Shown in pieces: positions 39,374-39,783 of a stretch of DNA of 64,000 nucleotides. Below the pieces are notes generated by a model. It was given only the letters and a program-made list of their open reading frames with translations, searched no databases and had not been told where the DNA came from. Position 1 is the first letter of the stretch. The number at the start of each line of letters is the position of its first letter. The DNA comes from an uncultured Chlamydiales bacterium (GTDB taxonomy: Bacteria; Chlamydiota; Chlamydiia; Chlamydiales; JAAKFR01), in contig OY969414.1 in NCBI GenBank assembly GCA_963699155.1, positions 1,003,757-1,067,756 on the forward strand, given 5' to 3'. The position numbers were made by a program, and so were the translations under genes.

Positions 39374-39402
39374 TTGCCATAGATTTTAAAAAATAATATA
39401 AT
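39374..39402 (+). promoter_or_regulatory. Putative sigma70/66 promoter upstream of the NHLP precursor and tilS
   Basis: TTGCCA-N17-TATAAT. Confidence 0.65.
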
Positions 39403-39432
39403 AAATATTATTAAAACTTTGGGGAAAAAACT

Positions 39433-39783
39433 ATGGTACAAGAAACACAAAAGAGCGCAACTTTAGAAAATCAGATGGCGCGATTGATTGCCAGGGCTGC
39501 TTATGATGAGAAGTTTAAAAAAGAGCTCTTGAGTAATCCGGGCGAAACTTTAAAGAAATCCAATATCGCTGTGAAACCCAATGTAGAGGTTCGCTTTATT
39601 GAGGATAGTGATAAAGTAGTCTACATTAAAATTCCTAGAAAAGATGAGTTAGATCTCTCTGATGCAGAAATTGCACAGATTACCGGTGGACGCGAAAGCG
39701 GGCCCTTTGATCTTAGCCCAAAATTGGTACTGAAAATTTTTGAAGGTTTGAGATCAGTCGCTCAATGGTTTAAAAATTTATGA
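39433..39783 (+). CDS. NHLP-leader (nitrile hydratase-like) RiPP precursor-like peptide
   Basis: LIARAAYDEKFKKELLSNP...VEVRFIED...YIKIP...LSDAEIAQITGG leader, then a 30-aa core. Confidence 0.8.
   Translation: MVQETQKSATLENQMARLIARAAYDEKFKKELLSNPGETLKKSNIAVKPNVEVRFIEDSDKVVYIKIPRKDELDLSDAEIAQITGGRESGPFDLSPKLVLKIFEGLRSVAQWFKNL

Follow-up and report, generated by a model that had tools for sequence, protein, structure and literature searches.

An NHLP-leader precursor upstream of tilS in a chlamydia-like bacterium, one of 17 scattered precursors that may be processed and exported in trans

A 116-residue open reading frame (ORF) directly upstream of tilS, in a 64,000-nt stretch of the genome of an uncultured Chlamydiales bacterium (contig OY969414.1; the whole stretch is herein called the window), is, judged by its profile match, a genuine NHLP-leader precursor of the TIGR03793 family. 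We consider it probable that this precursor, a member of a family scattered through the genome, is cut after its double glycine and that an amphipathic peptide, probably unmodified, is exported in trans. The original prediction, made from the letters of the window, had described the gene as an orphan; this is true of the window only, as the genome holds 16 paralogous precursor genes and two NHLM export cassettes. Once the whole genome is read, the puzzle of a precursor of the ribosomally synthesized and posttranslationally modified peptide (RiPP) type without a nearby enzyme or exporter dissolves. Table 1 collects the features; coordinates prefixed C1 refer to the whole genome contig.

Table 1. 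Features of the precursor locus (window positions) and the two export cassettes (C1 positions)
Feature	Position	Strand	Basis or content
Sigma-70-type promoter-like site, TTGCCA-N17-TATAAT	39374..39402	+	11 of 12 consensus matches; function predicted
Shine-Dalgarno-like run GGGG, 8 nt 5' of the ATG	39421..39424	+	Read directly in the sequence
Precursor ORF, 116 aa, stop codon included	39433..39783	+	Sequence and ORF list
NHLP leader domain, residues 13-86	39469..39690	+	TIGR03793, 60.1 bits (cut-off 50.9)
Double-glycine recognition/cleavage motif LSDAEIAQITGG, residues 75-86; predicted cut after G86	39655..39690	+	Motif and homolog conservation
Core peptide RESGPFDLSPKLVLKIFEGLRSVAQWFKNL, 30 aa, residues 87-116	39691..39780	+	No Cys; net charge +2
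Predicted amphipathic helix, residues 96-115	39718..39777	+	DSSP on AlphaFold2 model
tilS	39794..40819	+	TIGR02432, 174.1 bits (cut-off 93.6)
ftsH	40876..43626	+	TIGR01241, 788.7 bits (cut-off 600)
NHLM cassette B	C1:2198513-2206495	+	TolC-like, HlyD, ABC1, ABC2
NHLM cassette A	C1:568183-573394	-	HlyD, ABC1, ABC2; no TolC-like gene seen

Results

The precursor has an NHLP leader, a double-glycine site, and an amphipathic core

The ORF aligns to TIGR03793 over profile positions 4-77 of 77, terminating exactly at the GG, and passes the curated cut-off (60.1 versus 50.9 bits), which bears out the leader assignment of the original prediction; in a six-frame search of the genome with the same hidden Markov model (HMM), it scores 60.5 bits and ranks 4 of 31 matches. 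Pfam returns only NHase_alpha, below its cut-off (19.4 versus 27.2 bits), so Pfam alone would miss the NHLP family. Among 1.84 billion representative proteins, HMMER gave 1011 hits at E ≤ 0.001, the best of them other than the precursor itself at 39% identity; in the 13 hits inspected, similarity ended at the GG site. The same boundary is seen in an alignment of 49 sequences (the precursor and 48 single-domain HMMER hits): G85 and G86 are conserved in at least 90%, as the earlier proposal of a GG cleavage site requires, and conservation is nil beyond them. Conserved glycines followed by hypervariable cores are, at the level of sequence, the classic leader/core pattern. The leader residues at positions -4, -7, and -12 are I, I, and L, all hydrophobic, and match the positions described for the pockets of the peptidase LahT, which hold Val-4 and Leu-7 as well as Leu-12 of its leader according to the accessible part of that report (PMC6363468).

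The AlphaFold2 model of the precursor, built with the 49 aligned sequences, has a mean predicted local distance difference test (pLDDT) score of 83.1. The leader is folded confidently (10-residue blocks over residues 11-50 have mean pLDDT values of 92-97), and a short helix spans residues 77-84. A fold search of the Protein Data Bank with this model gave nothing at E ≤ 0.001; the top match, a weak one (E = 0.067; probability 0.98), is the nuclear magnetic resonance structure of a proteusin precursor (8tb1), with nitrile hydratase alpha chains ranking next.

The core has only three Ser/Thr residues and a monoisotopic mass of 3473.919 Da if unmodified. Mean pLDDT is 77 at residues 101-110 and 81 at residues 111-116. 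The hydrophobic moment of the predicted helix is 0.575, a value that 79 of 20,000 shuffles match or exceed; when the best 18-residue stretch over the whole core is taken instead, the observed moment is attained by 357 of 20,000. Core amphipathicity thus significantly exceeds chance, and the helical periodicity noted earlier for a Cys-free core of net charge +2 is confirmed. Within the family, this core has the highest hydrophobic moment (0.60 over 18 residues). A word-indexed search of 5.8 billion proteins for homologs of the core found only the precursor itself, and an atlas search with residues 87-116 gave no usable match.

The promoter-like site is the top-scoring one within positions 39100-41000, a region with five such sites (2.3 ± 1.6 in shuffles). 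Together with the 116-residue frame, the GGGG run, and the 10-nt gap to tilS, it had been described in the original prediction, and all four are present in the sequence. The GC content of the ORF is 38.7%, as against 47.4% for the window. A promoter specific to the 17 NHLP genes of this genome was looked for by eye in the upstream 130 nt, without statistics, and none was seen; the best promoter match in these 130 nt contains an exact TATAAT for 5 of the 17.

A family of 17 scattered precursors, most with a doubled leader

The genome is a single contig of 2,399,326 bases (47.5% GC) and is rated 100% complete. The six-frame search gave 31 TIGR03793 matches at E ≤ 1 in 18 frames; one frame (E = 0.35; six stops) was dismissed as noise, and 30 domain matches across 17 genes remain. 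Four of these genes, the precursor included, have a single NHLP domain, and 13 have two in tandem (e.g., C1:897577-898104 on the minus strand and C1:2090040-2090630 and C1:1699416-1699994 on the plus strand, all outside the window). A motif of the LSxxELxxIxGG type is found in 15 genes, with GG in 11 and AG, GA, or DG in 4; it is lost in the other 2. The family cores are 22-55 residues long, many of them Gly-rich and hydrophobic, and Cys occurs in just 2 of 15 (one residue each).

The two-domain precursors have a single GG site, placed after the second NHLP domain. We counted domains in the 149 best HMMER hits other than the precursor with a leader HMM built from the 49-sequence alignment; one domain was found in 55, two in 89, four in 4, and none in 1, counts that are not frequencies because ranking by summed score favors multidomain proteins. 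Of the 93 multidomain proteins, 81 have a GG-type motif close to where the last domain ends, and only 15 have one close to where the first ends. A literature phrase search found no publication on a doubled or tandem NHLP leader.

Within 4 kb of the 17 loci are housekeeping genes, insertion sequence (IS) copies, and ORFs without a known family; inspection of these ORF lists revealed no recurring enzyme gene. Small hydrophobic ORFs adjoin some of the paralog loci. Copies of one transposase-like ORF pair (C1:1334815-1335363, 1621000-1621959, and 1700226-1701044; same first 40 residues) lie within 2 kb of three precursor loci, a hint that the family is scattered with the help of IS elements.

Two export cassettes, only one of which keeps the full C39 catalytic set

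Two C39-peptidase ABC genes are present in the genome, each within an NHLM export cassette. Neither C39 match lies in the window, in line with the original prediction; the word orphan fails at the level of the genome. Cassette B, ∼1.16 Mb from the precursor, includes a TolC-like protein of 540 residues; its HlyD, ABC1, and ABC2 proteins score 199, 910.8, and 685.6 bits against TIGR03794, TIGR03796, and TIGR03797 (cut-offs 156.2, 853.3, and 709.4), and the corresponding scores in cassette A are 143.2, 903.6, and 770.8 bits. Between the end of cassette A and another precursor gene (at C1:565462) are 2.4 kb. A third TIGR03796-like sequence (C1:2188348-2189457, plus strand; 424 bits over profile positions 334-708), 10 kb before cassette B, is a decayed fragment broken by one TGA and two TAA codons. 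Two adjoining F-box proteins (454 and 373 residues; C1:576185-578672) are encoded ∼3 kb from cassette A.

The C39 domain of cassette B (ABC1 at C1:2201395-2203545) matches LahT150 (6mpz; E = 6.7e-41) and keeps Gln12, Cys18, His91, and Asp107, the counterparts of LahT Gln21, Cys27, His101, and Asp117. As described in the available text of its report, LahT150 removes leaders of both Nif11 and nitrile-hydratase type from many different cores, with approximately the last 13 leader residues sufficing (PMC6363468). No Nif11-type leader is found in the genome, so the NHLP genes are the only recognized substrates of these exporters. In the C39 domain of cassette A (ABC1 at C1:570393-572546, minus strand), the catalytic Cys is replaced by Ser and the His by Gln. 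The Cys is kept in 12 of 14 C39 domains from 12 related genomes; a second C39 copy in a congener (G003) has the same Ser, with the His retained. From these substitutions, the Ser-for-Cys lineage may be non-cleaving or serine-type.

Structure prediction for the cassette B C39 domain with the precursor gave a complex score of 0.47 (best of three controls, 0.03), with contact agreement between runs of at least 73% and a partner pLDDT of at least 65. Of 157 solved complexes, 116 attain the mark for such scores, as do 2 of 215 mismatched pairs; at scores of 0.60 or lower, it is attained by only 18 of the 157, together with both passing mismatches. As similar complexes have been solved (6mpz and PCAT1 entries), the predicted complex may be memory and indicates likeness, not binding.

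Search for modifying enzymes

The complete genome has no match to YcaO (PF02624) or LanC-like (PF05147) profiles. Radical-SAM proteins (PF04055) number 11, all assigned by NCBIfam to housekeeping families: MtaB, MiaB, MqnC, MqnE-like, RimO, HemW, HemN, LipA, EpmB, and two of RlmN type. The only one in the window is RlmN, as stated in the original prediction (374.9 bits; cut-off 290); the second RlmN-type gene (C1:3651-4760, plus strand) scores 289.6 bits against the same cut-off. A radical-SAM gene beside a paralog (C1:2088745-2089980) was considered as a maturase and rejected, being the tRNA enzyme MtaB (453 versus 357 bits). None of the 11 is a PoyD-like epimerase, and TIGR04517 gives only 11.8 bits, on the precursor itself. 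The known NHLP-linked maturases (YcaO, LanC, and radical-SAM) are thus absent, in a search that did not cover enzymes of GNAT, hydroxylase, halogenase, or methyltransferase type. With no known maturase and a Cys-free core, the product is most likely unmodified.

Distribution among relatives and in the phylum

We compared this genome (G000) with 40 relatives. Of these 41 genomes, 11 have NHLP matches at E ≤ 1e-4, and 12 have full-length ABC1-like matches (>700 bits; start at profile position 1-2). Both are present in 9 genomes, NHLP alone in 2 (G018 and G030), ABC1 alone in 3 (G014, G024, and G028), and neither in 27; precursors and full-length exporters thus mostly occur together. No statistic is given for this co-occurrence because the genomes are kin. 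Five of the 9 genomes with both (G013, G032, G034, G031, and, at cassette A, G000) have a precursor no more than 5 kb from ABC1.

In a sample of 300 genomes from the phylum, 36 have an NHLP match at E ≤ 1e-6, above the cut-off in 27. Our genome leads this sample with 18 matches, followed by two with 12. No match is found in any of the 29 genomes of one family (f19), whose members among those listed are ∼1-1.2 Mb in size. A chlamydial-type Hc1 histone-like gene is present (74.5 bits; 1 of 14 control genomes also matches). Together with the F-box genes and a leucine-rich-repeat NEL effector-like gene (see below), it fits the "chlamydial" label used in the original prediction.

The position before tilS

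The precursor stop codon ends at 39783 and the tilS ATG is at 39794; no terminator-like site lies between them, and on this layout, tilS may be cotranscribed with the precursor. We take tilS to be a neighbor, outside the peptide system. In the congeners G002 and G003, the best matches to the precursor (35 and 31% identity) cover the leader only and lie elsewhere than tilS. No NHLP ORF precedes tilS in either genome: upstream of it, G002 has a repeat membrane protein together with a small membrane ORF, and G003 has a permease-like gene. A third congener (G001; 74% complete) has no match to the precursor. The placement at the head of tilS-ftsH, pointed out in the original prediction, is not conserved in the two congeners checked and is without evident meaning; from the gene order it looks incidental, as if the gene had been inserted at a synteny break in this lineage only.

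Directly upstream of the precursor (36814-39276, plus strand) is a gene for an 820-residue protein with leucine-rich repeats. The C-terminal part of this protein matches type III secretion system effector E3 ubiquitin ligases of the IpaH/SspH2/SlrP type (NF011917, 154.3 bits), far below equivalog cut-offs. Two further ORFs of the window appear eukaryote-like by eye. One (34684-36747, plus strand; 687 residues) has a long middle part rich in Glu, Lys, and Gln between Gly-rich repeats at either end and is without an NCBIfam match at E ≤ 1e-10; the other (44671-47997, minus strand; 1108 residues) has a C-terminal GNSCYLN box, presumably reminiscent of ubiquitin-specific proteases.

Discussion

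The reading that we judge probable would work as follows. With its C-terminal helix, LSDAEIAQITGG, the 86-residue folded leader would dock in the C39 groove of the cassette B NHLM exporter, the operon that encodes TolC-like, HlyD, ABC1 (peptidase/permease/ATPase), and ABC2 proteins. The peptidase would cut after Gly86, and the complex would export the 30-residue core. The released product would be a cationic, amphipathic helical peptide, unmodified, that acts on membranes in the manner of a class II bacteriocin; it may target membranes of the host or of the inclusion, or else competing bacteria within the same host. Processing in trans, as first suggested from the window, is backed by the two NHLM cassettes (one with an intact C39 set), the 16 paralogs, and the co-occurrence in relatives.

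A number of points weigh against this reading. The precursor is the most divergent of the 17 (best paralog 35% identical over 71 residues) and has no ortholog that we could find, the best match in the genus being 35% identical and limited to the leader. A search of sequencing runs for expression of the precursor gave no RNA run, only four soil-metagenome DNA runs, each with 0.12-0.20 of the words. No immunity-like gene or small membrane ORF lies between the leucine-rich-repeat gene, the precursor, and tilS. As for the cassettes, ABC2 of the otherwise intact cassette B falls slightly under its cut-off (685.6 versus 709.4 bits), and cassette A combines its substituted catalytic Cys and His with a short HlyD ORF of 282 residues that scores below cut-off (143.2 versus 156.2 bits). 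The complex prediction lends only weak support to the pairing of the C39 domain with the precursor, and an unrecognized maturase could be present even though the known ones are absent.

Such an enzyme, one that current models do not link to NHLP, would modify the core before export and make the product a true modified RiPP, proteusin-like or other. We regard this as unlikely. In its favor, NHLP leaders are best known, from the parts of the literature available, for their recognition by maturases (LanM, halogenases, and radical-SAM enzymes; PMC12537861, PMC2887384), an 86-residue folded leader seems costly for export alone, and two ORFs without a known family (505 and 463 residues) flank cassette A (0.57 Mb). 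AntiSMASH also calls chlamydial clusters "RiPP-like," with polytheonamide as the top hit in the MIBiG database (0.25), as given in the accessible portion of that study (PMC9666466). Against it stand a 100%-complete, single-contig genome with no YcaO, LanC, or non-housekeeping radical-SAM, a core without Cys and with few hydroxyl residues, and 17 precursor loci where no enzyme gene recurs; NHLP species without known maturases were, moreover, already noted by Haft et al. in the text available (PMC2887384).

Two other explanations would deny the precursor a role as an exported peptide. It could be a decaying or idle member of the family, left by a recent insertion of a divergent NHLP cassette upstream of tilS and no longer processed or useful. 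The divergence from all paralogs, the missing ortholog in congeners and in the 5.8-billion-protein set, the low GC content, the IS copies beside three precursor loci, and decay elsewhere in the family (2 of 17 genes without the GG motif, and an ABC1 fragment with three stops) fit that account, which we nevertheless think improbable: the frame is intact, the leader scores above the curated cut-off, the GG site is flawless, as is the -4/-7/-12 pattern, a near-consensus promoter match and a ribosome-binding site are in place, and the core has significant amphipathic order, which random drift would not keep. Alternatively, the gene could tune tilS-ftsH expression in cis, as an upstream or leader gene, with the NHLP fold repurposed for an intracellular role and not exported. 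The 10-nt gap without a terminator-like site and the strong promoter match, which would drive tilS-ftsH too, are what one would expect of such a gene, but tilS has other neighbors and no upstream NHLP gene in two congeners, the other 16 family members adjoin unrelated genes, and the cleavage motif is fully kept. This account is very improbable, and the repurposed leader that the original prediction had offered as an alternative is unnecessary.

The closest known system is the NHLP/NHLM system itself. In the part of their paper accessible here, Haft, Basu, and Mitchell defined NHLPs in 2010 and reported, from phylogenetic profiling, a three-gene ABC cassette as the only co-profiled family, one to 12 precursor copies per genome, precursors distant from the export genes, and some NHLP species without enzymes for lanthionines or thiazole/oxazole-modified microcins (TOMMs) (PMC2887384). 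The design of many scattered precursors and one exporter is, by that account, already known. Our genome resembles it in its leader profile match that runs above cut-off to the GG, its hypervariable cores, its large paralogous family, its HlyD/ABC1/ABC2 cassette, and the distance between precursors and export genes (PMC2887384). It differs in that no TOMM, LanM, or radical-SAM maturase is found, 13 of 17 members have two tandem NHLP domains, the host is chlamydia-like, and one cassette has its catalytic Cys replaced by Ser and its His by Gln. The only example from the "chlamydia group" in the available text of Haft et al. is Victivallis (PMC2887384), and a literature search found no description of an NHLP peptide for true chlamydiae. 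AntiSMASH "RiPP-like" clusters have been reported in several chlamydial families; as far as the accessible material of that study goes, those of Rhabdochlamydiaceae with the polytheonamide hit (supplement file 2) are probably the same kind of locus as the precursors here (PMC9666466).

Two modified-peptide systems share part of the architecture. The precursor is like those of proteusins (polytheonamide-type) in having an NHLP leader of ∼80-90 residues with a defined fold, for which a proteusin precursor is the best fold match, and unlike them in lacking a PoyD-like radical-SAM epimerase and in having a short, helical, amphipathic core. Systems of the prochlorosin/LahA type likewise combine a common leader with diverse cores in many precursors, and the C39 domain of cassette B has the catalytic residues of LahT150, which cuts nitrile-hydratase-type leaders (PMC6363468, in the text available); they differ in their Nif11 leaders, LanM, and Cys-rich cores, whereas here there are no Nif11 leaders and no LanC, and the cores are nearly all without Cys.

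Unmodified peptides offer a further comparison, with class II bacteriocins and microcins, which share the double-glycine consensus LSxxELxxIxGG, an exporter of C39-ABC, HlyD-type adaptor, and TolC-like protein, and a cationic core, amphipathic or Gly-rich and hydrophobic, that here too is presumably unmodified. Class II bacteriocins, and class IIa microcins of Gram-negatives, are exported by a peptidase-containing ABC transporter (PCAT) with a membrane-fusion protein and TolC. The differences are the leader, 86 folded residues here as opposed to a tag of ∼15-25 residues there, and the adjacent immunity gene, of which none is identified here.

This chlamydia-like bacterium keeps 17 bacteriocin-like precursor genes and two exporters without a recognizable modifying enzyme. 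Environmental chlamydiae live only inside eukaryotic cells, and we put forward, as a tentative conjecture, that they have an expanded, maturase-free NHLP arsenal, mostly with doubled leaders, that would be secreted unmodified via a type-I-like PCAT/HlyD/TolC route into the inclusion, there to affect membranes of the host or the inclusion, or competing symbionts within the host; the Ser-variant exporter may handle a subset uncut. Secreted effectors or weapons of a simple class would thereby be added to chlamydial biology, provided that the peptides are made, and RiPP leaders would gain a new variant in the doubled NHLP form.

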